Below are positions 16,025-60,143 of a DNA stretch of 64,000 bases, one piece after another. Position 1 is the stretch's first letter. Each line of letters begins with the position of its first letter. Where the stretch lies: positions 72,032 to 136,031 of the forward strand of contig CAZFTR010000002.1 of the NCBI GenBank assembly GCA_964522405.1. Reading direction: 5' to 3'. The notes beneath the pieces were generated by a model. It did no database searches. It worked only from the letters and a program-made list of their open reading frames with translations, and was not told the origin of the DNA. Origin of the DNA: an uncultured Gammaproteobacteria bacterium. GTDB taxonomy: Bacteria; Patescibacteriota; Patescibacteriia; Magasanikbacterales; UBA922. A program made the position numbers and the translations under genes.

Positions 16025-16056
16025 AAACAGTAAACAGTAGTGACTGGTAAAATTTG

Positions 16057-16106
16057 TCATCTCGAGCGGAATTTTCTGAAAGAAAAATGGAGTCGAGAGA
16101 TCCCTT
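16057..16106. repeat. partial (left-arm only) copy of the inverted-repeat element found at 59989-60143
   Basis: About 45 of 50 nt identical to the left arm of the 59989 element (gtcatc[t/c]cgagcgga[a/g]ttttctgaaagaaaaatg...gatccct). No matching right arm lies downstream. Confidence 0.5.
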
Positions 16107-19926: not shown

Positions 19927-19953
19927 TAAAAAAGCACCGCAATTGTGGTGTTT
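19927..19953 (+). terminator. intrinsic terminator
   Basis: gcaccgcaattgtggtg hairpin followed by ttttt. Confidence 0.6.
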
Positions 19954-19970
19954 TTGATTATATTATGTTT

Positions 19971-20210
19971 GGGGCCGCGGGGGACGACTCCATCTCAAAT
20001 GCAACTCGTGTGCTGCTCCCGTCCCCACAAGAGAGGCACAGGTTTACTCGACACCGCAAAGCCGAGGAATTACATAGAGAGGAGTCGTCCCCAAAGGATC
20101 TGGAGGGTGGCCGTCTAAGCCTGGTTATCAAGCAGACTCAGGAAAGCAGAGGAGAGTGTTGTCGGAGAGACATCGCCACCCTTGAGAATCCTTAGCGCGT
20201 ACAGAGCATA
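19971..20210. ncRNA. GC-rich structured element made of two stem-closed units; candidate ncRNA of unknown family
   Basis: About 60% GC in a 33% GC context. GGGGGACGACTCC at 19979-19991 pairs with GGAGTCGTCCCC at 20081-20092, and GGAGGGTGGC at 20102-20111 pairs with GCCACCCTT at 20175-20183. There is no SD-led ORF. Confidence 0.35.
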
Positions 20211-20324
20211 TCATGTTTATTAGATTTTGTCTAGTCCTGCATAATTTTTTCAGTCAGATTTTTTGATTATTGAGCATGTATCCTCTTTATGCTACAATTT
20301 ATCTATATTCTTATTATTTGATTT

Positions 20325-23466: not shown

Positions 23467-24171
23467 GTGAAGACGCTTTGCAGCGTTTTTTTGCTTGCTG
23501 CTCTTTTGGTGGCTCTTGCTTGTCACTGGCTGATCGGGGTTCTAACCCCCGAGAAGCCCAGTGAGTCAATTCAGGAGGTCTTTTCAGGACTTGTTCAGCT
23601 CGATGAACAGGAACGAGAAGAGATCCTTTGGGTTGAGAGTGAGCCTGAAGAAGGGCGCCGGCAGATCAAGCCTGCCCTAACCATCCTGCTTTCAAGATCA
23701 GACGTGCAAATGTACGTTGATCAGGAAATTGACGAGTACCAACTCGTCTCTCGAGGTACTCTGTCTGTCACGGTGCGAAATATCACTGTGGCACTGCGCA
23801 ATTCTTGGGCTGTGTTTGACACCCGGGTTTTGGTGCAATTCAATGGCAAAATGTACACTAGCAGAATAGTTTTGAGGTTGGCTGAAATCAACTACGAACG
23901 GGAAAGCCGAGCAATCTATGTGGGCAAGTTCAAGATCGATCATATCAAGACACCGGCAGCGCCTTACTTCGTTGCCGAACTTCTGAGATGGCCGCTCAGT
24001 GAACTGATCACCTGGACTATCTCGAATCGTCCACTCCACTACCTGACTGAAGATGACTTGTCTGACTTGCCGGTCAAAGGTGTTTGGCCTTCGGCGATTT
24101 GGTTGGAAGATGACAAGGTAGTCGTCGGTTTGGGTGTTGCAGACGACGTCGTGAGCTCAGGCTCTCCGTAA
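23467..24171 (+). CDS. GC-rich hypothetical secreted/membrane-anchored protein (no recognisable family)
   Basis: GTG start preceded by an AAAGGGGA Shine-Dalgarno sequence, N-terminal hydrophobic helix, and about 52% GC against the roughly 33% backbone. A bidirectional terminator follows. Confidence 0.5.
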   Translation: MKTLCSVFLLAALLVALACHWLIGVLTPEKPSESIQEVFSGLVQLDEQEREEILWVESEPEEGRRQIKPALTILLSRSDVQMYVDQEIDEYQLVSRGTLSVTVRNITVALRNSWAVFDTRVLVQFNGKMYTSRIVLRLAEINYERESRAIYVGKFKIDHIKTPAAPYFVAELLRWPLSELITWTISNRPLHYLTEDDLSDLPVKGVWPSAIWLEDDKVVVGLGVADDVVSSGSP

Positions 24172-26758: not shown

Positions 26759-26983
26759 TCAGATCTCGATCTCCGGAATCGCCCTGTTGTGGCGGTCCGG
26801 CGGGTCGAAGGGCTCGTAGGCCGGCAGCTGGGTCGGCCTCAGCGAGGTCTGTCCTTCTTCTCCCTCGTCGTCCTCCTCTTCGTCAGTGTAGTGGCGCACC
26901 GGCTCTTCCGCAGGACGGTCAAGCCGACGAGTGTCATCACATGGGCCCGGTTCTGGTGGGCTCGGGTGATCCTCTTTGGGCAT
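26759..26983 (-). CDS. GC-rich small acidic Pro-rich protein (74 aa), unknown function
   Basis: About 62% GC. AGAGGAG Shine-Dalgarno sequence 7 nt upstream, TTGACA-17-TATCTT promoter at 27015-27043 (minus strand), and a terminator hairpin at 26673-26696. Confidence 0.4.
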   Translation of the reverse strand: MPKEDHPSPPEPGPCDDTRRLDRPAEEPVRHYTDEEEDDEGEEGQTSLRPTQLPAYEPFDPPDRHNRAIPEIEI

Positions 26984-29311: not shown

Positions 29312-29597
29312 AAGACACTCTATTCTCAGGGTGTTTTTTGTACCCACCCCCTTGCCAAATAACTAAAATTTGTTATAATGGCTCTGTCTTCAAATACCAT
29401 TTTGGCTGAATTTACCATTTTTTCATTAAAATCTTTTCAAATTTTTTTAGCTTAACAAAGGTTAAGCCGCAAAAATTGTTCAAAGATTTTAATTGAAAAA
29501 AATGAAAAATTCATCTCAAAAGCGTATTTAAAGACAGCGCCATATCGCTATCTTTAAAAAAGACAAATTTTTAATTTATATACTTAACTCAAACGTT

Positions 29598-31583
29598 ATG
29601 CATATCTGGCTAACTCTAGTGCCAGCAATTCTGGCCATTTTATATGGTTTTTTCTTAATTCAATGGATCAAAAAGCAGCCTGCAGGAGGAGACAAAATGC
29701 AGACAATTGCCAAAGCTATCCAAGAGGGCGCAAAAGCTTATCTTGGGCGCCAATATAAGACAATTGCAGTAGTTGCAATAGCGGTATTTGCACTACTTTG
29801 GTTTTTTATTGATCTAAACACAGGAATTGGATTTCTAGTTGGTGCAGTTTTATCTGGTCTTGCTGGATATCTGGGCATGACAATTTCTGTTCAAGCAAAT
29901 GTTCGAACTACAGAAGCTGCCAAAAAAGGTCTAAAAGAAGCTTTATCAATGGCTGTAAAAGGTGGATCTGTAACAGGTTTACTAGTTGTGGGTCTAGGAC
30001 TTCTGGGTGTTAGTGGATTTTACCTAATTTTCAAAGATGTAAATGCTCTTATCGGACTTGCATTTGGTGGAAGTCTTATTTCAATCTTTGCTCGTATTGG
30101 TGGTGGAATTTTTACCAAAGCTGCAGATGTTGGAGCTGACCTGGTAGGAAAAGTTGAAGCTGGAATTCCAGAAGATGATCCACGAAACCCGGCAGTTATT
30201 GCAGACAATGTGGGGGACAATGTCGGGGATTGTGCTGGAATGGCAGCTGACTTGTTTGAAACGTACGCTGTTACTGCTGTTGCTGCAATTCTTCTTGGAT
30301 ACTTAACTTTTAACAACAAAGAATCTGCAATTTTTTATCCACTTGTAATTGGTGGAGTATCAATTATTGCTTCAATCATTGGAACCTTCTTTATAAAACT
30401 TGGAAAAAAGAAAAATATAATGGGAGCCCTTTACAAGGGTCTAATAGTTTCAGCAATTCTTTCACTTGGGGCTTTCTGGTTTGTAAGTGATTGGTTTGCT
30501 CCAGGACTTGAAATGAAAACAACAGCGCTTTTCTACAGTGCTCTTGTTGGTGTAATTCTTACAGCACTTATGGTTTGGATTACAGAGTATTATACTTCTA
30601 CAGAATTTAAACCGGTAAAATCAATTGCAAAAGCAAGTGAAACAGGACATGGTACAAATGTAATTGCAGGTCTTGCTGTTTCTATGAAAGCAACCGCTCT
30701 CCCAGTAATTTTCATTGCAGCTGGAATGCTCGTAGCTTTTTCATTTGCAGGTTTGTATGGAGTTGCAATCGCAGCTATGGCCATGCTTTCCCTGACAGGA
30801 ATTATTGTAACAATTGATTCATATGGTCCTATTACTGATAATGCTGGTGGAATTGCTGAGATGGCAGAGCTTGGTGAAAGTGTCCGCGCTGTAACTGATC
30901 CACTTGACGCAGTTGGAAACACAACAAAAGCAGTTACCAAAGGATATGCAATCGGAAGTGCTGCTCTTGCTGCGCTTGTTTTATTTGCTGATTTTACGCA
31001 CAAGCTTACTGAAAATGGAATGGATACGGTTTTCAGAATTGACGATCCAAATGTACTTGTGGGATTATTTATTGGTGGACTTCTTCCGTACTTGTTCGGT
31101 GCTTACCTGATGGAATCAGTTGGAAAAGTTGCTGGATCTGTTGTAAAAGAAGTTAGAAGACAGTTCAAAGAAATTAAGGGAATTATGCAAGGTGAAGGGA
31201 AACCGGATTATGCAACTTGTGTAGATATTGTAACCAAGGGTGCAATCGGACAAATGGTTTTACCAGCCCTTATCCCGATTGTGGCTCCGATCTTGGTTGG
31301 TGTATTCCTGGGCGCAGCTGCACTTGGTGGATTACTTGTTGGTACAATTGTAACAGGAATATTTGTAGCACTATCCATGACAGCAGGTGGTGGAGCTTGG
31401 GACAATGCCAAGAAATATATTGAAGACGGAAATCATGGTGGAAAGGGAAGCGATGCCCATAAAGCCGCAGTAACAGGGGATACAGTTGGTGATCCCTACA
31501 AAGACACTGCTGGTCCTGCTATTAATCCTATGATTAAGGTGGCAAATATTGTTGCACTGCTTATTGTTGGATTATTGAAGTAG
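29598..31583 (+). CDS. hppA: membrane-bound H+/Na+-translocating pyrophosphatase
   Basis: 661 aa polytopic protein with GGG(I/L)[16 protein letters not shown] and DNVGDNVGD motifs diagnostic of the family. Confidence 0.9.
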
Positions 31584-31608
31584 AATTTATAGCTTAAAAC
31601 TACTAAAA

Positions 31609-31635
31609 CTCTGCTAAATTTAGCAGAGTTTTTTT
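31609..31635 (+). terminator. intrinsic terminator of hppA
   Basis: ctctgctaaa/tttagcagag perfect palindrome followed by T7. Confidence 0.7.
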
Positions 31636-31644
31636 GATCATATC

Positions 31645-31673
31645 TTGACAAAACAGGATTTTTGTGTTATATT
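31645..31673 (+). promoter_or_regulatory. consensus promoter of GC-rich cassette 1
   Basis: TTGACA, 17 nt spacer, TATATT. Confidence 0.5.
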
Positions 31674-31796
31674 AATTTGTTATTTTCAGGACTTCGTTCC
31701 AGCTTTTTAGTTGCTTTTTTAGGCAGTTGAAAAGCCGGAGCGGAGAATAGATAGAGAAAACGTTGCGGTCGCCGGTGCCGCAGGAGGGAAGAAGAT

Positions 31797-32240
31797 ATGG
31801 AGAGGTTGCTTAACCTCTGGGACAATTTCGCCGACTGGCGCTGGACCCCGGTCATCGGGATCTTGGTGGCTCTCGTGCTCATCGTCGGCCTCATTCGCGA
31901 GGCGTCGTACATGATCGGGATGGAGCCGATCATCGGTGAGCAGTTCGCGGCCGAGGTCGGTGCTTCCTACTGTCAGGCGGCTCACGCCGACCCGGAGTGG
32001 GGAGCTGCTGAGCTCCGGGCCTGTGGCGCGCGGCTCGAGCAGCTGGTCACGCCCGAGGAGTGGGACGAGCTCAAGCCGACGATCATCTCGGTCTACTCCG
32101 AGGAATGCGTTCCTGTCAACCTCGGCCTCTGCGCTGAGATCGAGGCTCGGTACAAGACGCTCGAGGACGATCCTCATCTCGGAATGCTCGTCGTGGCCCG
32201 CGACTTCGTCTGGCTGCGACGCGGCCTGTACGGAGACTAG
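31797..32240 (+). CDS. GC-rich small membrane-anchored protein (147 aa), unknown function
   Basis: GGAGGGAAG Shine-Dalgarno sequence 6 nt upstream, one N-terminal TM helix, four Cys in the soluble part, about 60% GC. Overlapping alternative-frame ORFs were rejected. Confidence 0.5.
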   Translation: MERLLNLWDNFADWRWTPVIGILVALVLIVGLIREASYMIGMEPIIGEQFAAEVGASYCQAAHADPEWGAAELRACGARLEQLVTPEEWDELKPTIISVYSEECVPVNLGLCAEIEARYKTLEDDPHLGMLVVARDFVWLRRGLYGD

Positions 32241-32277
32241 GCCGCGAGCCAGGTTCGAACGTTCATCTCGCGTTGGT

Positions 32278-32390
32278 AGGCGAGATTCTGTTCTTTTCTT
32301 TTACGCTTTCATTGGAGACGAAGGCGTTCCCGGCGACAACTACCAGTCGCCATCGGAACTATGTTTTTTTGAAAAAGAAAATATTGACCA
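32278..32390 (+). repeat. 110-bp 3' repeat module, copy 1 (nested hairpins plus T-run; terminator-like)
   Basis: Nearly identical to 32842-32953. Contains GTTCCcGGCGACaactaccaGTCGCCatcGGAAC followed by tatgttttttt. Confidence 0.7.
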
Positions 32391-32434
32391 ATAAAAAATT
32401 GCTTTCTTAAGCATTTTTTTATTTTCTACAGGTC

Positions 32435-32463
32435 TTGACAAAAGCTAAAATATATGTTATAGT
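32435..32463 (+). promoter_or_regulatory. consensus promoter of GC-rich cassette 2
   Basis: TTGACA, 17 nt spacer, TATAGT. The leader shares ttgttatttt..gttccag with the cassette 1 leader. Confidence 0.5.
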
Positions 32464-32534
32464 CTTTTGTTATTTTTTGTTCCAGTCTAGTAGTTACTTA
32501 TTAGGTGCTTATTAGATCGGAGTAAGGAGCCATC

Positions 32535-32840
32535 ATGGACTTGTCGGTTCGTTTGGATCGCTGGATTCTGGTATGGGTCATTGCTTCCGCGCTGGTCGTC
32601 TTCGGCGTGCTGGTGTTCTCCACCAACGATTGGATGGAGTTCAACAGCGTAAACGTTGAGATCGACTTCGTTGCCGTCAGACTGGCCTCGGTCGTAGACG
32701 ACAACTCCGAGCAGGAGCAGCCGACGGCCAGTCCGACCGTCTACGCTCTGCGTCCCGGAATCCGTCCCGGGATCAGGATGTGGGACCATTCGGCCCACGA
32801 GTATCGCGTGGTAGCACGACTCGACCACCCGCGCCGGTAG
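32535..32840 (+). CDS. GC-rich small membrane-anchored protein (101 aa), unknown function
   Basis: TAAGGAG Shine-Dalgarno sequence 6 nt upstream, N-terminal TM helix, PGIRPGIR repeat, about 58% GC. Confidence 0.5.
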   Translation: MDLSVRLDRWILVWVIASALVVFGVLVFSTNDWMEFNSVNVEIDFVAVRLASVVDDNSEQEQPTASPTVYALRPGIRPGIRMWDHSAHEYRVVARLDHPRR

Positions 32841-32841
32841 G

Positions 32842-32953
32842 CGGGATTCTGTTCTTTTCTTTTACGCTTTCATTGGAGACGAAGGCGTTCCCGGCGACAA
32901 CTACCAGTCGCCACCGGAACTATGTTTTTTTGAAAAAGAAAATATTGACCACA
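32842..32953 (+). repeat. 110-bp 3' repeat module, copy 2
   Basis: Direct repeat of 32278-32390 with 2 to 3 mismatches, followed by a further hairpin terminator at 32959-32982. Confidence 0.7.
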
Positions 32954-33291
32954 TAAAAAACACGTGTAAACCGTGTTTTTTTGTTTTGGTAAATTTCCTT
33001 GCCTCGCCCCGATTCTCACCGGGGCGAAGCTGGTTGGCGACCTTGGTCGCTCAGGTGATGCAGGATCCGCCGATCAGGAGACCGGCAAAAGCAAAGGCCA
33101 GCGCTACGACCCTGATCATGTGCCAGAAGTCGGTCGGCTGTCCGTAACTGCGTCCACTCCGATTGCTCAAAACTTGTCCTCCCAGACTACATTTTAGACC
33201 TTTTTTGCCTAATAGGTCAAATAAGGCTAAATCATTGACTTTTTAGGCATTTTAGAATATAATCAATCCACACTTATAAAAATTCAAATTT

Positions 33292-35322
33292 ATGAACGTT
33301 ACTGAATTAGCCAGAAAATTACGAGTTAATACCAAAGAACTTTTGGAAATTTTGCCTGAGCATGGTTTTGATATAGGAAAAAAGGCTATTAAGATCGATG
33401 ATAAGGTTGCGCAACAAGTTATGCGTAAATGGAGATTTATAAAAAAAGAACTTGAAGAGAGAAAAGCCAAAGAACTTGAAGAGAGAAAAGCCAAAGAAAA
33501 AGAACTTCGAAAAGAAATGGGGCAAACTGTTAAATTGCCTTCTTTTATTACTGTTCGAGAATTTGCTGAAAAAATGGAGCTTCCAACCACTCAAGTTATT
33601 ATGGAGCTGATGAAAAATGGAATTCTTGCCAATCAAAACCAAGATATTGATTATGAAACAGCAGCAATTATTGCCGAGGAGCTGGGATTTGGAGTTGAGC
33701 AGGCTGGATCAGATTCAGATCAAGTACAACAAGATTCTTCGAGAGAAGAAGATTTGGAAAAAGCAATTGCTTCAGGAGATGATCGACAAACAAGGCCCCC
33801 GGTTATTGTTATTATGGGTCATGTTGATCATGGTAAAACTTTACTTTTAGATACTATTAGAAAAGCTGATGTTATTTCCGGAGAAGCTGGGGGAATTACT
33901 CAGCATATCGGGGCTTACCAAACTATTTGGGAAGATCCTAAAACAAAGGAAAAAAGAGCAATCAGTTTTATTGATACTCCGGGACATGAAGCTTTTACTA
34001 TGATGAGAAGTCGTGGTGCAAAAGTTGCAGATATTGCCATTTTGATTGTTGCAGCTGACGATGGTGTTAAACCACAGACCAAAGAAGCAATTGATATTAT
34101 CAAGGCTGCCAAACTTCCATTTGTGGTGGCTGTAAACAAGATAGATAAGCCAGGCGCTGATCCGCAAAAAGTTAGAACAGAATTATCTCAACATGGAATT
34201 CTTACTGAGGAATGGGGTGGAGATATTCAAATGGTAGATATTTCTGCAAAAGAAAATACAAATATTGATAAATTATTGGATGTTCTTCTTCTTGTTGCAG
34301 ATATGAATGAAGAGTCTATACAAGCCGATGCTTCCATGCCGGCAGCCGGAACTGTAATTGAATCACATGTAGACAAGGGAATGGGCGCTGTTGCAACAGT
34401 GCTGATTCAGTCAGGAACCCTTAAGAAAGGGAATAAATTGGTTGTGAATGGTGAGATCTATGGAAAAGTAAGAGCAATGAAAGATCATCGGGGCGAAGAC
34501 ATGCAGGAGGCAGGTCCATCTGTACCAGCTCAAATTCTTGGATTCAAAGTTGCTCCTGTTGTTGGAGATGTGCTTGATGTTTCAAAATCAGATACTGCCA
34601 GTGAAATTGATGTAAAAAAGAAAAAAGTAGAACAAACCGGAGCTGAGCGCTCAACAGTTCTTGACTCAATGCAATCAGAAGATGAAGATGATGGCGGAAA
34701 GAAAACAATCAATTTGGTTATAAAAGCAGACGTGCTTGGTTCTCTTGAGGCAATTATTGCTTCTCTTTCAAAAATTAAACATCCAGAGGTTGGAATTAAA
34801 ATTATTGGAAAGGGTCTTGGAAATATAACAGAAGACGATGTTAGAAAAGTGGAGGAGCCAAATACCAGTATAGTTGGTTTTAATGTAAATGCCACTCCTG
34901 TAGCAAAAGACATGATTCAGGAAAAAGATATCCACTTTTTGCAGTACTCTGTTATTTATGATTTAATTAATTGGGTCAAACAAGAGCTTGGAAAGCTTCT
35001 GGAAGACGAAAAAATTATAACAGAACTTGGAAAATTAAAAGTTTTGGCAATTTTCAAAAAAGAAAAAGGCTCAATGATTGTTGGTGCAAAAGTAGAAGAT
35101 GGTAAAGCTATCAAAAAAGAAAAAGTAAGGGTAAAAAGAGAAGGTGTTGTTATGGGAACTGGAGAAATAAAAGAATTAAAAGTTGGGCAGCAAGTTTCAA
35201 AAGAAGTTTCAGTTGGAACAGAATGTGGACTTGAAATTATAACTAGAGAGAAAATTCAAGAAGGAGATGTTTTAGAAGTTTACAAAGAAGAATCAAAAAC
35301 AAGAGATCTAGAGACTATTTAA
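33292..35322 (+). CDS. infB: translation initiation factor IF-2
   Basis: IF2 N-terminal domain, G domain (GHVDHGKTTLLD, DTPGHEAF, NKID) and C-terminal beta-barrels. Confidence 0.9.
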   Translation: MNVTELARKLRVNTKELLEILPEHGFDIGKKAIKIDDKVAQQVMRKWRFIKKELEERKAKELEERKAKEKELRKEMGQTVKLPSFITVREFAEKMELPTTQVIMELMKNGILANQNQDIDYETAAIIAEELGFGVEQAGSDSDQVQQDSSREEDLEKAIASGDDRQTRPPVIVIMGHVDHGKTLLLDTIRKADVISGEAGGITQHIGAYQTIWEDPKTKEKRAISFIDTPGHEAFTMMRSRGAKVADIAILIVAADDGVKPQTKEAIDIIKAAKLPFVVAVNKIDKPGADPQKVRTELSQHGILTEEWGGDIQMVDISAKENTNIDKLLDVLLLVADMNEESIQADASMPAAGTVIESHVDKGMGAVATVLIQSGTLKKGNKLVVNGEIYGKVRAMKDHRGEDMQEAGPSVPAQILGFKVAPVVGDVLDVSKSDTASEIDVKKKKVEQTGAERSTVLDSMQSEDEDDGGKKTINLVIKADVLGSLEAIIASLSKIKHPEVGIKIIGKGLGNITEDDVRKVEEPNTSIVGFNVNATPVAKDMIQEKDIHFLQYSVIYDLINWVKQELGKLLEDEKIITELGKLKVLAIFKKEKGSMIVGAKVEDGKAIKKEKVRVKREGVVMGTGEIKELKVGQQVSKEVSVGTECGLEIITREKIQEGDVLEVYKEESKTRDLETI

Positions 35323-35330
35323 AATCTTCT

Positions 35331-36155
35331 ATGGTTGTGGAACGAGAAAATCTACCATCTGGTGAACAAAAATCAGAAATTAAAAAACCAAAATTAGAAG
35401 TTGTTTCTCAAGGACCTTCTGACCAGTCTGAACCGGTAGCGCCGATGAATATTGATCGCGGTACTGTTCGTGAATCTCGAGTAACTCTTGTGAAAGAAAA
35501 TGGTGGCTATCTGGGTCAGGCAGAGGTTGGAAAAGCAATTGTGCAAAAAACAGTTTTTGAGCCTAGGGAAGCAGATCTTGAGCCAGGAGAGAGTAAGGAA
35601 CAAGCATTTGCTGAAAAAATAAATGAGTCCGAAACACCAGCTGAGGAAGCTAGAGAAATAAAACAGGAAATACAAAAAGAACATATTGAGGCTGCAGTTG
35701 AATTGTTTTGTCTTGAATATTATAAACGTTCAGGCGCTGCTGTGTATGAGGCAAAAACCATTACTCTTGGAGAGCGCGGAACCCAGAATAGGACGGCTGA
35801 TTTAACTGGGGAGGTTAGCCATAGGACAGAATTTCAATACGTAATTTCAAGAAGTGGAAAGAAACAAATGAAAGATCTTCTAAGTAGTGATTTGCCAGGA
35901 TTTATTACTAGAGATGGTTATAGATTTGATTTAGACCCCACAAAAGGAGATCTGCTAGGAGACAGAGGATTTACTGTTACTTTAAATATTACTGATCAAT
36001 TTGGAAATGAAAGACCGATAGATATTAATTTTTTCTACGGTGATGATGGAACTTCTGAAGACGAATCGGAAGATGAGTCAAAGATTGTAAATTTGAGTGA
36101 AAGAAGAGACCAAAAAAGAGAAGATGCAGATCATGATCAGGCTTTGGCAGCTTAA
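35331..36155 (+). CDS. hypothetical protein
   Basis: 274 aa acidic protein with no recognisable motifs. The ORF sits downstream of infB. Confidence 0.45.
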   Translation: MVVERENLPSGEQKSEIKKPKLEVVSQGPSDQSEPVAPMNIDRGTVRESRVTLVKENGGYLGQAEVGKAIVQKTVFEPREADLEPGESKEQAFAEKINESETPAEEAREIKQEIQKEHIEAAVELFCLEYYKRSGAAVYEAKTITLGERGTQNRTADLTGEVSHRTEFQYVISRSGKKQMKDLLSSDLPGFITRDGYRFDLDPTKGDLLGDRGFTVTLNITDQFGNERPIDINFFYGDDGTSEDESEDESKIVNLSERRDQKREDADHDQALAA

Positions 36156-39274: not shown

Positions 39275-39682
39275 TCAGGGAGTCTCGCCCTCGTAGAGCT
39301 TGGGACAGTGCCGGCGCAGGCGGGCGCGCCAGCGATCATTGGCGCACTCAGCCGGGCACCAGAATCCGAGTCTGCACATCAGGCGCTCGGCCAGCCGGTA
39401 GCCGATCTCGCGGATGTCACCGACCGCCTGGGTGCCGATGAACCGGTGCGGAATCCCGCAGCGGTCGAGAAAGGTCAGTGCTCGGGTGCAGGGGTCGGTT
39501 TCTCTTCCAACCCAGCTGAACTCCTCGGAGATGTATCCGTCTTCGAGGGCGCGCGTCAGACGCGCGCCGAAGCCGAACTCGATGAGGGGTCTGGGGTTCC
39601 CTTCGACGATTTCACAGAGAACCAGGATGCCACGGTGATCTCTGTCACCGAGGATCCGCATCATGTGGCGGTATTCTGTCAT
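39275..39682 (-). CDS. GC-rich hypothetical protein (135 aa) with C-terminal Cys cluster
   Basis: About 62% GC. GGAGAAGG Shine-Dalgarno sequence, promoter TTGCAA-17/18-TAATAT on the minus strand (39710-39739), WCPAEC...HCPKL possible zinc ribbon, and a terminator hairpin at 39243-39270. Confidence 0.5.
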   Translation of the reverse strand: MTEYRHMMRILGDRDHRGILVLCEIVEGNPRPLIEFGFGARLTRALEDGYISEEFSWVGRETDPCTRALTFLDRCGIPHRFIGTQAVGDIREIGYRLAERLMCRLGFWCPAECANDRWRARLRRHCPKLYEGETP

Positions 39683-43446: not shown

Positions 43447-44985
43447 ATGAAGCTTGAACAGGGTTTGAAAAAGATAATTAGTTCCCCAAGCAAGGCATTT
43501 TCAGTGCTTTGCTTTTGTTTTCTGCTCGGAGTAGCTTTTATTTCGATTTTAGATTTTAAGCTGAAGTTTTTTCACGCCTATATTTGTTTTTTTACAATTA
43601 TTTCATCTTTGTTTTTGTTTTGGAATAAAAAACAAATAAGATTTTCATTATTTTGCGTATTTTTATTTGTTTTTGGGATTATCAGATATGCTTTAGCATT
43701 TCCAATTAATCAAAATCATATTTCTAAGTATATAGATCAGAAAATTAGTTTTATTGGAATTATTACTGCTGAACCTGATGTGCGTATGGATGGAGTTAGA
43801 TACATTATTGAAAGCAGAGAGGTTTTGGAAGAGGAATCAAGTAAGAAATCAAAAGGACGAGTATATATAAAAGAAAAACTGTATCCGCGATACAGCTATG
43901 GTGATAAATTAGAAATTTTTTGCAGAATCCGGGAACCAGAACCAATTGAGGCAGATCCAGGATCAAAAGATAGAGATTTCCGCTATGATCGTTATCTGGC
44001 GCGTTTTGGAGTATTTGCAAATTGCCAAAATCCAAAAATAGAGGTTTTGGAAGCGAGTCGGGGGAATATGATCATGAGATCAATACTTTCTTTAAAAGAA
44101 ATAGTAGCCCGGAAAATAAACCAACTTTGGCATGAGCCCCACGCTAGTTTTATGGCAGGCTTGCTCTATGGTTATCGTGGAGGACTTGGAAGCTTGAATG
44201 AGCTTTTTAGTAGAACAGGAGTAACTCATATTGTTGCGATCTCTGGATACAATATTACAATTATTTCTACGATTTTGATCACAGTTTGTGTGCGACTTTT
44301 GATCCCTAGAAAAAAGGCTTTTTGGTTGATTGTTATTGGAATAATAGTTTTTCTTATTTTTGCCGGGCTTAGCGCCTCAGTTGTCCGAGCTGGAATTATG
44401 GGAATAATTGTTTTGATTGCAAAGCAGCTTGGTAGAGCAAGTCGAGTAGGAAATGTTATGTTACTTACAGCAGTTGTTATGACTCTGCACAATCCCTTTA
44501 TTCTTATTTGGGATGCAGGATTTCAATTATCTTTTATTTCAACTCTTGGGCTTGTTTATCTGACAAAATTTGTAGAAAAACCCTTTGAGAAATTACCGGA
44601 AATATTGGGAATAAAAGAATCAGTCCTTTCAACTTTGGCTGCTATTATTTCAACATTGCCGCTTATACTTTATCAGTTTGGGAGATTATCGATTGTCGCT
44701 CCAATTGTAAATGTGTTGATACTCTGGATTATTCCCTGGATTATGATTGTTGGTTTTTTTGGAGTTGTGGTTGGTTTTGTTTTTAAACCGATTGCAGTTT
44801 TACTTGCTTGGATTTCTCATGCAGGCATGGCATATATAATTTTGATTGTTAAATTTTTTGCTGGATTTAGTTTTGCAGCTGTGGATATGCGAGTTCCGAT
44901 TTGGTTTATGTTGGCTTCATACTTTGCAATGATTTGGTTTGTGATCAAATCAAAGAAATTAGAAAATAAAAAAAGCTCTGGATGA
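43447..44985 (+). CDS. comEC: ComEC/Rec2-family DNA internalisation channel (membrane competence domain)
   Basis: Polytopic membrane protein with DUF4131-like N-terminus and a Competence domain (GVTHIVAISGYNITI). Confidence 0.75.
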   Translation: MKLEQGLKKIISSPSKAFSVLCFCFLLGVAFISILDFKLKFFHAYICFFTIISSLFLFWNKKQIRFSLFCVFLFVFGIIRYALAFPINQNHISKYIDQKISFIGIITAEPDVRMDGVRYIIESREVLEEESSKKSKGRVYIKEKLYPRYSYGDKLEIFCRIREPEPIEADPGSKDRDFRYDRYLARFGVFANCQNPKIEVLEASRGNMIMRSILSLKEIVARKINQLWHEPHASFMAGLLYGYRGGLGSLNELFSRTGVTHIVAISGYNITIISTILITVCVRLLIPRKKAFWLIVIGIIVFLIFAGLSASVVRAGIMGIIVLIAKQLGRASRVGNVMLLTAVVMTLHNPFILIWDAGFQLSFISTLGLVYLTKFVEKPFEKLPEILGIKESVLSTLAAIISTLPLILYQFGRLSIVAPIVNVLILWIIPWIMIVGFFGVVVGFVFKPIAVLLAWISHAGMAYIILIVKFFAGFSFAAVDMRVPIWFMLASYFAMIWFVIKSKKLENKKSSG

Positions 44986-45328
44986 GCTTGGAATTAGTGC
45001 AGGAGTGATCTCGGGGCTCGCAGTGGCGCACTTCCGACCTTTTCTCGGTATGGGCGGCGGCTAATTGCCAGCCGGCCTCACCGTAAGGTGTTGGATAGTA
45101 CGCCACGCGAGCCCTCTAGTCAGATGCCGTGCATCTCGTTCTCCCCCTAATAGCCGCATGTGGCCCAGACGTAGTTTGGTTTCGTTGCCGTTTTGCCTCC
45201 GTGGTTTTGAAGTGGAGGTCTTGGCTCGAATTGGGCCGTCGTTGATTCTTCTGCTCGGCTATAAGCAGAAGAACCCGACGCAAATATTAAATCATAAAAA
45301 AGATTTTTTGTCAAGATTATCACTCTCC
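44986..45328. ncRNA. 343-bp GC-rich non-coding island (about 58% GC), candidate structured RNA or inserted element
   Basis: No SD-led ORF. It contains a perfect 10-bp hairpin TTCTTCTGCT/AGCAGAAGAA at 45246-45273 and other stems. It lies between comEC and the ComEC-type MBL gene. Confidence 0.3.
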
Positions 45329-59987: not shown

Positions 59988-59988
59988 T

Positions 59989-60143
59989 GTCATCCCGAGC
60001 GGAGTTTTCTGAAAGAAAAATGAAGCCGAGGGATCCCTGTCTATGTAGTAGAAAGAGTGGATTAAAAGTGTTGCATTCTACTGTATAGACAGGGATCCCT
60101 CGGCTACGTCCCTTACTTCGTAGAGACTCCGCTCGGGATGAAA
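59989..60143. repeat. 155-bp element with 16-bp perfect terminal inverted repeats and a nested internal palindrome; MITE-like or structured RNA
   Basis: Outer IR TCATCCCGAGCGGAGT pairs with ACTCCGCTCGGGATGA. An inner stem of about 27 bp pairs AGCCGAGGGATCCCTGTCTATGTAGTAGAA with TTCTACTGTATAGACAGGGATCCCTCGGCT. A partial copy lies at 16057-16106. Confidence 0.55.

Follow-up and report, generated by a model that had tools for sequence, protein, structure and literature searches.

Morons are segments of added DNA in phage genomes, which carry their own promoter and terminator and deviate in GC content from their surroundings (PMC3594210). One of their products, gp15 of phage HK97, is a small membrane protein that blocks the entry of phage DNA (PMC3594210). 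Among the Patescibacteria, horizontal gene transfer and genomic islands are common, and a survey of islands in metagenome-assembled genomes (MAGs) of this group described mostly transfers between Patescibacteria, in islands larger than the one reported here (PMC12455944). Here we analyze a 64-kb stretch of contig CAZFTR010000002.1 (64,000 nucleotides, numbered from its first letter and hereafter called the window), in which the gap between hppA and infB holds three autonomous cassettes, units 1 and 2 on the plus strand and unit 3 on the minus strand. We consider it probable that they form a strain-specific islet of laterally acquired, moron-like high-GC cassettes, lodged in a gap that varies across the relatives of an AT-rich, small-genome bacterium poor in Shine-Dalgarno (SD) sequences.

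As in morons, the extra DNA lies between conserved neighbors, every unit comes with a promoter and a terminator of its own (here at the level of sequence only), small membrane proteins are frequent among the cargo, and its composition deviates from that of the flanks (58-63% versus 25-28% GC, with a GC content at third codon positions, GC3, of.77-.84 versus.22). Unlike morons, the cassettes are located among chromosomal housekeeping genes with no phage genes in the 64 kb, two of the units share near-identical terminator modules and related promoter/leader regions, and cassettes recur in several gaps across relatives. Chromosomal hot spots and islets provide a second comparison, as they also show conserved flanking core genes, a content that differs in each relative, atypical composition and strain-specific cargo, but the units described here consist of single genes with 0.2-0.55 kb of cargo, each provided with promoter and terminator DNA of native type. 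A classical genomic island differs further, because no integrase was found here, no tRNA gene borders the islet (the end of a tRNA-Leu gene lies about 2.3 kb upstream, with hppA in between), and the sole direct repeat is inside it. With the islands of Patescibacteria it shares the presence of laterally acquired DNA in an ultra-small, streamlined genome, but the codons of its cargo point to about 60-65% GC, and no homologues of the cargo were detected. Three features are unusual: the very small size of the units, the shared flanks around unrelated cargo, and the recurrence across related genomes.

From the stop codon of hppA (31583) to the start codon of infB (33292), AT-rich control DNA alternates with GC-rich cargo (Table 1), the cargo segments showing a GC3 of 0.70-0.84 and the interspersed promoter and terminator DNA remaining at 25-28% GC. 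A first-pass annotation had described this gap as two cassettes followed by a GC-rich tail with only a 22-codon hydrophobic open reading frame (ORF) on the minus strand. The features it had named were found where it had placed them, with the corrections given here and below: the tail proves to be a complete cassette in its own right, the third of the gap, encoded on the minus strand with an ORF of 39 aa (ORF3) and two GC-rich hairpins 3' of its stop codon, and the window averages 36% GC, compared to the value of about 33% given earlier for the backbone. Apart from this third unit, it had missed at least two more cassettes in the window and the GC-rich inserts in the same gaps of relatives.

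Table 1. Segments and features of the hppA-infB gap, in window coordinates (TM, transmembrane).
Feature	Position	Strand	GC	Remarks
Segment: T1-P1-leader	31584-31732		28%	
Segment: cargo 1	31733-32268		63%	
Segment: module copy 1	32269-32398		42%	
Segment: T2-P2-leader	32399-32515		26%	
Segment: cargo 2	32516-32829		59%	
Segment: module copy 2	32830-32960		45%	
Segment: cargo 3	32990-33190		58%	
Segment: divergent promoters	33191-33291		25%	
T1, bidirectional terminator of hppA	31605-31632			Perfect AT-rich palindrome (14+14) with A and T tracts; marks the left island edge
P1, sigma-70-type promoter	31645-31673	+		TTGACA-17-TATATT, extended-10 TG; 11/12 consensus match
Leader 1 hairpin	31692-31745	+		CUUCGUUCC-A-(15-bp AT stem)-C-GGAGCGGAG; fold z -4.0 for 31680-31800
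SD of ORF1	31782-31788	+		AGGAGGG
ORF1	31797-32240	+	64%	147 aa; GC3 0.84; predicted N-terminal TM anchor and helical domain with 4 Cys
3' module copy 1	32265-32398	+		Hairpins 1-3; A-rich tail ending ATATTGACCAATAAAAAA
T2, AT-rich hairpin terminator	32390-32423			Between units 1 and 2
P2, promoter	32435-32463	+		TTGACA-17-TATAGT, extended-10 TG; 11/12 consensus match
Leader 2 hairpin	32473-32529	+		UUUUUUGUUCC-A-(AT stem)-C-GGAGUAAGGAG; fold z -2.7
SD of ORF2	32524-32529	+		AAGGAG
ORF2	32535-32840	+	60%	101 aa; GC3 0.77; predicted N-terminal TM anchor
3' module copy 2	32828-32960	+		
T3, AT-rich bidirectional terminator	32955-32981			Common to unit 2 and the convergent unit 3
ORF3	33170 to 33051	-		39 aa; TTG start; MSNRSGRSYGQPTDFWHMIRVVALAFAFAGLLIGGSCIT; predicted C-terminal TM helix
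SD of ORF3	33183 to 33177	-		GGGAGGA; TTG start 6 nt later
P3, promoter	33220 to 33191	-		TTGACC-18-TAAAAT; divergent from the infB promoter
infB promoter	33235-33263	+		TTGACT-17-TATAAT; right edge of the island; sole part of the gap conserved in relatives

The foreign and recent origin of the cargo is well supported by its GC content per codon position, its Arg:Lys ratio, its SD sequences and its absence from 18 related loci. GC contents at codon positions 1/2/3 are.67/.41/.84 for ORF1 and.63/.40/.77 for ORF2, a pattern missing from the alternative frames, whereas the GC3 of the backbone genes hppA and infB is.23 and.22, respectively. GC content per codon position tracks genomic GC, and the profile of both ORFs fits genes that would have evolved at roughly 60-65% genomic GC. 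In addition, the Arg:Lys ratios of the predicted products are 9:2 (ORF1) and 10:0 (ORF2). This codon-position profile disfavors both a de novo origin and a purely RNA element, and the birth of the ORFs out of GC-rich RNA genes was rejected because the profile is that of long-evolved high-GC coding sequence.

GC-rich islands in AT-rich genomes are often structured non-coding RNAs, in which case the ORFs would be incidental. Two other GC-rich islands of the window, described below, indeed lack codon periodicity and fold with z-scores of -7.2 and -5.8, and the ORF2 region reaches a z-score of -4.0. We nevertheless find such an explanation of the GC-rich segments quite improbable, as the GC3 > GC1 > GC2 periodicity is strong in the SD-led frame of ORF1 and ORF2, the SD sequences are correctly spaced to the start codons, and the fold of the ORF1 region is no more stable than that of shuffled sequence (z = -0.9). 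Moreover, no Rfam 15 family other than tRNAs reached its gathering threshold in the window, and even at E <= 10 the matches of 31550-33300 lay far below threshold; a weak match to lysM-TM7 was dismissed as noise. The ORF2 region may, however, have an additional role at the RNA level.

The SD sequences themselves set the cargo apart. Of 40 native genes in the window, just 3 are preceded by a match of 5 nt or more, that of HU (GGAGG) among them, in agreement with the earlier remark that native genes mostly lack an SD, and for the window and its relatives (L004-L021) together the share is 2.4% of 123 long genes. As an automated census of GC-rich small ORFs across loci often chose antisense frames, only the statistic for native genes was used from it. 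The strong SD sequences that the first-pass annotation had assigned to ORF1 and ORF2 are both present.

In contrast to the cargo, the control DNA appears to be of native type. The TTGACA-17-TATAnT promoters proposed earlier for units 1 and 2 were both recovered, and sites as good as these number six in the 64 kb of both strands, all six located upstream of a gene or cassette in the correct orientation, compared to 3.9 +/- 1.9 in locally shuffled sequence. The hppA promoter has the same form (TTGaCAAA...TGTTATAnT), and P1 and P2 were thus classified as native-type promoters. The promoter/leader regions of the two units are 71% identical over 58 nt, and their leader hairpins follow one design (...GUUCC-A-(AT stem-loop)-C-GGAG...), with the GTTCCAG motif already noticed as shared forming the 5' arm of both. 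The leader length of about 100 nt that accompanied that observation did not hold, as the leaders would span about 117 nt in unit 1 and about 65 nt in unit 2, assuming a transcription start about 7 nt past the -10 box. The GC-rich DNA of unit 1 begins within the 3' arm of its leader hairpin, and the SD of ORF2 is part of the corresponding arm in unit 2.

Downstream, units 1 and 2 end in copies of a 3' repeat of 130 nt (32269-32398 and 32830-32959/60) that are 95-96% identical. Their near-identity had been recognized before, although with a length of 110 bp and a GC content of 58-60%, which we measured as 42-45%. The module is composed of three separate hairpins rather than one long palindrome: in copy 1, hairpin 1 (32265-32286) precedes a U-rich run, followed by hairpin 2 (32303-32327) and hairpin 3 (32326-32359), the latter with a U7 tract. 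Judged by these elements, the module is a predicted double intrinsic terminator. Its repeat starts at the stop codon of ORF2, whose last codons and stop are inside hairpin 1 of copy 2. Hairpin 1 reads CTCGC/GCGAG in copy 1 and CCCGC/GCGGG in copy 2, and because the A/G difference in the 3' arm is matched in the 5' arm, this compensatory change suggests that the hairpin is maintained by selection. The alternative that the module is a separately promoted gene was set aside, with no called gene matching the module ORF on record.

ORF1 and ORF2 are unrelated to each other (BLASTP E = 2), and what is duplicated are the flanks, namely the promoter/leader and the 130-nt terminator module, and not the genes. 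Accordingly, of the earlier proposal of a recently acquired and duplicated foreign module, the foreign and recent origin stands and the duplication is restricted to the flanks.

In its tandem small genes without homologues, with a similar structured repeat of about 130 nt starting at the stop codon of each, the islet resembles the cassettes of integrons and of clusters of attC sites lacking integrases (CALINs). Moreover, the module direct repeats lie 561 bp apart and exactly bracket unit 2 (T2-P2-leader-ORF2-module), as would be produced if the module were a recombination site at which a 561-bp circle had been inserted, in a Campbell-type or a site-specific manner. This integron-like, or otherwise site-specific or homology-driven, capture would also be in line with cargo as small and homologue-free as that of many integron cassettes, and with a second tandem pair in the related locus L006, with units 440 bp apart and a 48-nt repeat of its own at 96% identity. 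On the other hand, a regex search found neither RYYYAAC nor GTTRRRY core motifs, the hallmarks of attC, on either strand of the module, and no integrase (IntI included), transposase or phage domain was detected among the scanned ORFs of the 64-kb window, a few of which were hitless at the cut-off. Each cassette has its own promoter, the module is present in only two copies in the window and in none in the viral collection, and a tandem pair in locus L011 has no repeat. The only 20-mer match of the module in genome contigs (L003), located in a coding region of a MAG of 57% GC, was rejected as a chance event among about 1.2e12 positions. Taken together, we regard this explanation as rather unlikely. 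A cassette-capture mechanism in this group of bacteria, by which small genes of a high-GC donor (host or phage) would be placed in a reusable native expression frame made up of promoter, 5' hairpin and repeated terminator module at a few conserved gaps, is unlikely, and we are equally skeptical that such capture would be a functional analogue of the integron, acting through an unknown recombinase or through flank homology. Should cassette capture be true, the cargo would record the high-GC partner of the organism.

Searches for the origin of the cargo under the preferred reading, that of laterally acquired moron-like cassettes, yielded no homologue or donor. ORF1 matched itself alone in a search of 5.8 billion proteins, and a full HMMER search against 1.84 billion representative proteins returned itself plus two spurious matches to short stretches of long proteins. 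ORF2 had no match in a word-indexed protein search, and its exact sequence is absent from the protein collection searched. Searches by tblastn of 50,697 phage records and of 72,556 plasmids gave no match, IMG/VR yielded no real one, Pfam, PHROGs and PADLOC yielded none, and none of the ten small GC-rich ORFs tested (0/10) matched a PHROG family. Pfam matches to Clr5, SECRET and DUF6895, with E-values of about 0.1, were considered noise, and a viral match for ORF1 (L022) was rejected as a by-product of the pattern search, as it consisted of the exact peptide PEEWDELK in a phage portal protein.

The first-pass description of ORF1 and ORF2 as proteins of 147 and 101 aa with a single N-terminal hydrophobic helix each and no recognizable family agrees with their coordinates, the hydrophobic helix found in each and these null searches. 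An AlphaFold model of ORF1 was all-helical with a mean predicted local distance difference test score (pLDDT) of 57, a low confidence that makes it too poor for fold comparison. From the predicted helices we infer that the products of the cassettes are small single-pass envelope proteins. Small membrane toxins would also fit such hydrophobic proteins, and type I toxin-antitoxin-like and bacteriocin/immunity modules often occur as tandem repeated units, here with repeated flanks, strong promoters and SD-occluding leader hairpins; ORF3, with its 39 aa, has the size of a type I toxin. However, the promoter scan detected no antisense promoter over any of the ORFs, type I toxins are far shorter than ORF1 and ORF2, which are also mutually unrelated, and neither PADLOC nor Pfam gave a match. 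We consider a toxin or immunity function very improbable.

As the composition changes abruptly at the segment borders, we also considered an assembly chimera or contamination by high-GC DNA. The ORF1 protein is on record both in an NCBI contig of 169,945 bp and in a Logan assembly, where a contig from a single run (L001, SRR8146440) is 100% identical over 31400-32313, running from hppA through P1 and ORF1 into the module. L001 ends within the repeat, as expected of a de Bruijn assembly. A further cassette of the window (P0002, see below) is present with both native flanks and at 100% identity in three runs (SRR8146440, SRR8146441 and SRR31802802). Furthermore, the composition borders coincide with promoters, SD sequences and terminators, and the same pattern appears in independent metagenomes of the Joint Genome Institute (JGI). 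The stretch 32313-33249 has no independent contig, and the contig of one run ends at 31672, which would be expected from a chimera as well, but on the evidence of the Logan contigs the sequence is not an assembly artefact; a chimeric assembly is unlikely, and as an explanation for the islet, chimerism or contamination is scarcely credible.

To place the gap in a wider context, metagenomes were scanned with IF-2, which retrieved 18 related loci with infB 61-77% identical. The gene order rny-truB-methyltransferase gene-(variable slot)-infB-trx-DUF4349 gene-gdh-(variable)-inositol monophosphatase gene-leuS is conserved, and, with the exception of the infB promoter, the DNA of the island found no match in any of the 18 loci. 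In most relatives the slot before infB carries a soluble inorganic pyrophosphatase gene (ppa), whereas the window and L018 have hppA there; the slot holds ppa alone in L009 and shrinks to 516 nt in L015. On the minus strand just before infB, different GC-richer genes are found, coding for NhaA in L005, L007/L019 and L008, a CPA2-like antiporter in L013, another membrane protein in L017/L012 and L004, and, in L018/L014, a 107-aa ORF of 65% GC with a predicted C-terminal TM helix. In L011 the plus strand of this slot encodes a POT/MFS-like transporter.

The other gaps of this conserved order show the same behavior. The tandem pair of L006 (13839-14700, minus strand) occupies the gap between gdh and the inositol monophosphatase gene, with a promoter for each unit, and its 48-nt 3' repeat ends at an A-tract before a unique terminator hairpin, as in the window. 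The gap between truB and the methyltransferase gene harbors a GC-rich mini-operon of three ORFs plus a fourth cassette in L006 (1620-2700) and the tandem pair without repeat in L011 (210-900). A cassette of the same architecture is also present in L018. Thus, the same gaps hold different GC-rich genes in relatives from independent JGI metagenomes, and the GC-rich small ORFs form no families across genomes.

Two further small ORFs of the window were found in such gaps. The first, on the minus strand between rny and truB (26759-26983), is SD-led and has its own TTGACA promoter, and it encodes an acidic, proline-rich protein of 74 aa (65% GC, GC3.72) without homologue in Pfam, PHROGs or PADLOC. 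The second, P0002, on the minus strand between gdh and the inositol monophosphatase gene (39275-39682), has its own promoter and encodes a cysteine- and arginine-rich protein of 135 aa (GC3.78), again with no match in Pfam, PHROGs or PADLOC. In several relatives infB and trx are direct neighbors; in the window, a gene of 274 aa without Pfam match (35331-36155, plus strand) lies between them, and as it has the native composition (GC3.21), strain-specific inserts are not all GC-rich. A further gene (23467-24171, plus strand; 50% GC, GC3.55) encodes a protein of 234 aa that has a signal or TM segment at its N terminus and no Pfam match. This gene may be foreign but of older arrival, with a composition that has drifted partly towards that of the host.

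The scanned ORFs of the window encode housekeeping or unknown proteins. Products for surface polysaccharide synthesis, PilT, PilM and a prepilin peptidase are accompanied by PBP2, HU, RNase Y, TruB, H+-PPase (hppA), IF-2 (infB), thioredoxin and GDH, and by LeuRS, ComEC, LigA, GatA and Lgt. The presence of type IV pilus genes and ComEC together with few metabolic genes suggests an organism of the Candidate Phyla Radiation (CPR)/Patescibacteria.

If the cassettes were acquired laterally as proposed, transcription would start at a sigma-70 promoter of native type, and the 5' stem-loop would stabilize the mRNA and, in unit 2, occlude the SD. Translation would be SD-led, which is exceptional in this genome, the product would be inserted in the membrane as a small single-pass protein, and two tandem intrinsic terminators would stop transcription and shield infB. 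Units 1 and 2 could have arisen by copying of the flanks and their reuse for a second cargo, or by exchange of cargo through recombination between the shared flanks. By analogy with HK97 gp15, the products might conceivably act at the envelope, for example in the exclusion of phages or of DNA entry, or in host contact.

Several points weigh against this reading. The donor was not found, which is unusual for a recent transfer out of well-sampled high-GC bacteria. Each time, the foreign ORF lies between promoter and terminator DNA of native type, an arrangement that lateral acquisition leaves unexplained; in a variant of the model, one larger foreign fragment may have arrived first and AT-rich terminator/promoter modules may have been inserted between its genes afterwards. 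As noted above, the ORF2 region folds unusually well, and the right-hand junction falls in the part supported by the NCBI contig and by no independent one. In SRR8146441, Logan contig L026 (window 29333-31672) stops inside P1, which may be due to a heterogeneous population at the island border or simply to low coverage. Finally, the assignment to the CPR is deduced from gene content alone.

Were lateral acquisition confirmed, it would mean that the streamlined genomes of probable episymbionts keep acquiring tiny foreign genes, whose expression is driven by strong, insulated units in a few fixed gaps. Both the composition of the donor (about 60-65% GC) and the SD signature would then offer a testable handle on the partners in DNA exchange, the identity of which is a central question still open for uncultured CPR-like bacteria, and the small membrane proteins would be candidates for envelope functions where symbiont meets host or cell meets phage. 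For annotation, it would imply that small GC-rich genes are easily missed and that GC-rich islands in AT-rich genomes mix foreign mini-genes with unknown structured RNAs.

Other observations concern non-coding DNA of the window. On the minus strand at 44975-45285, between a gene for a ComEC Competence domain and a separate gene for a metallo-beta-lactamase domain, lies an island of about 60% GC with a TTGACA promoter and a terminator; it has no codon periodicity and no Rfam match, its 311 nt fold with a z-score of -7.2, and it probably represents a structured RNA that is either very divergent or not yet described. The minus strand has a second such island, GC-rich and non-coding (19950-20215), with a promoter-like site, a terminator and no Rfam match, which folds over its 266 nt with a z-score of -5.8. 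Upstream of the islet, an imperfect inverted repeat of 170 nt (29378-29543) lies in the long leader of hppA, which extends from the promoter (29352) to the start codon (29598); this repeat could be a regulatory RNA structure. Finally, a 51-nt intergenic repeat, 90% identical, occurs at 16055-16105 and, 44 kb apart, at 59988-60140, where it is part of a palindrome of about 150 nt.

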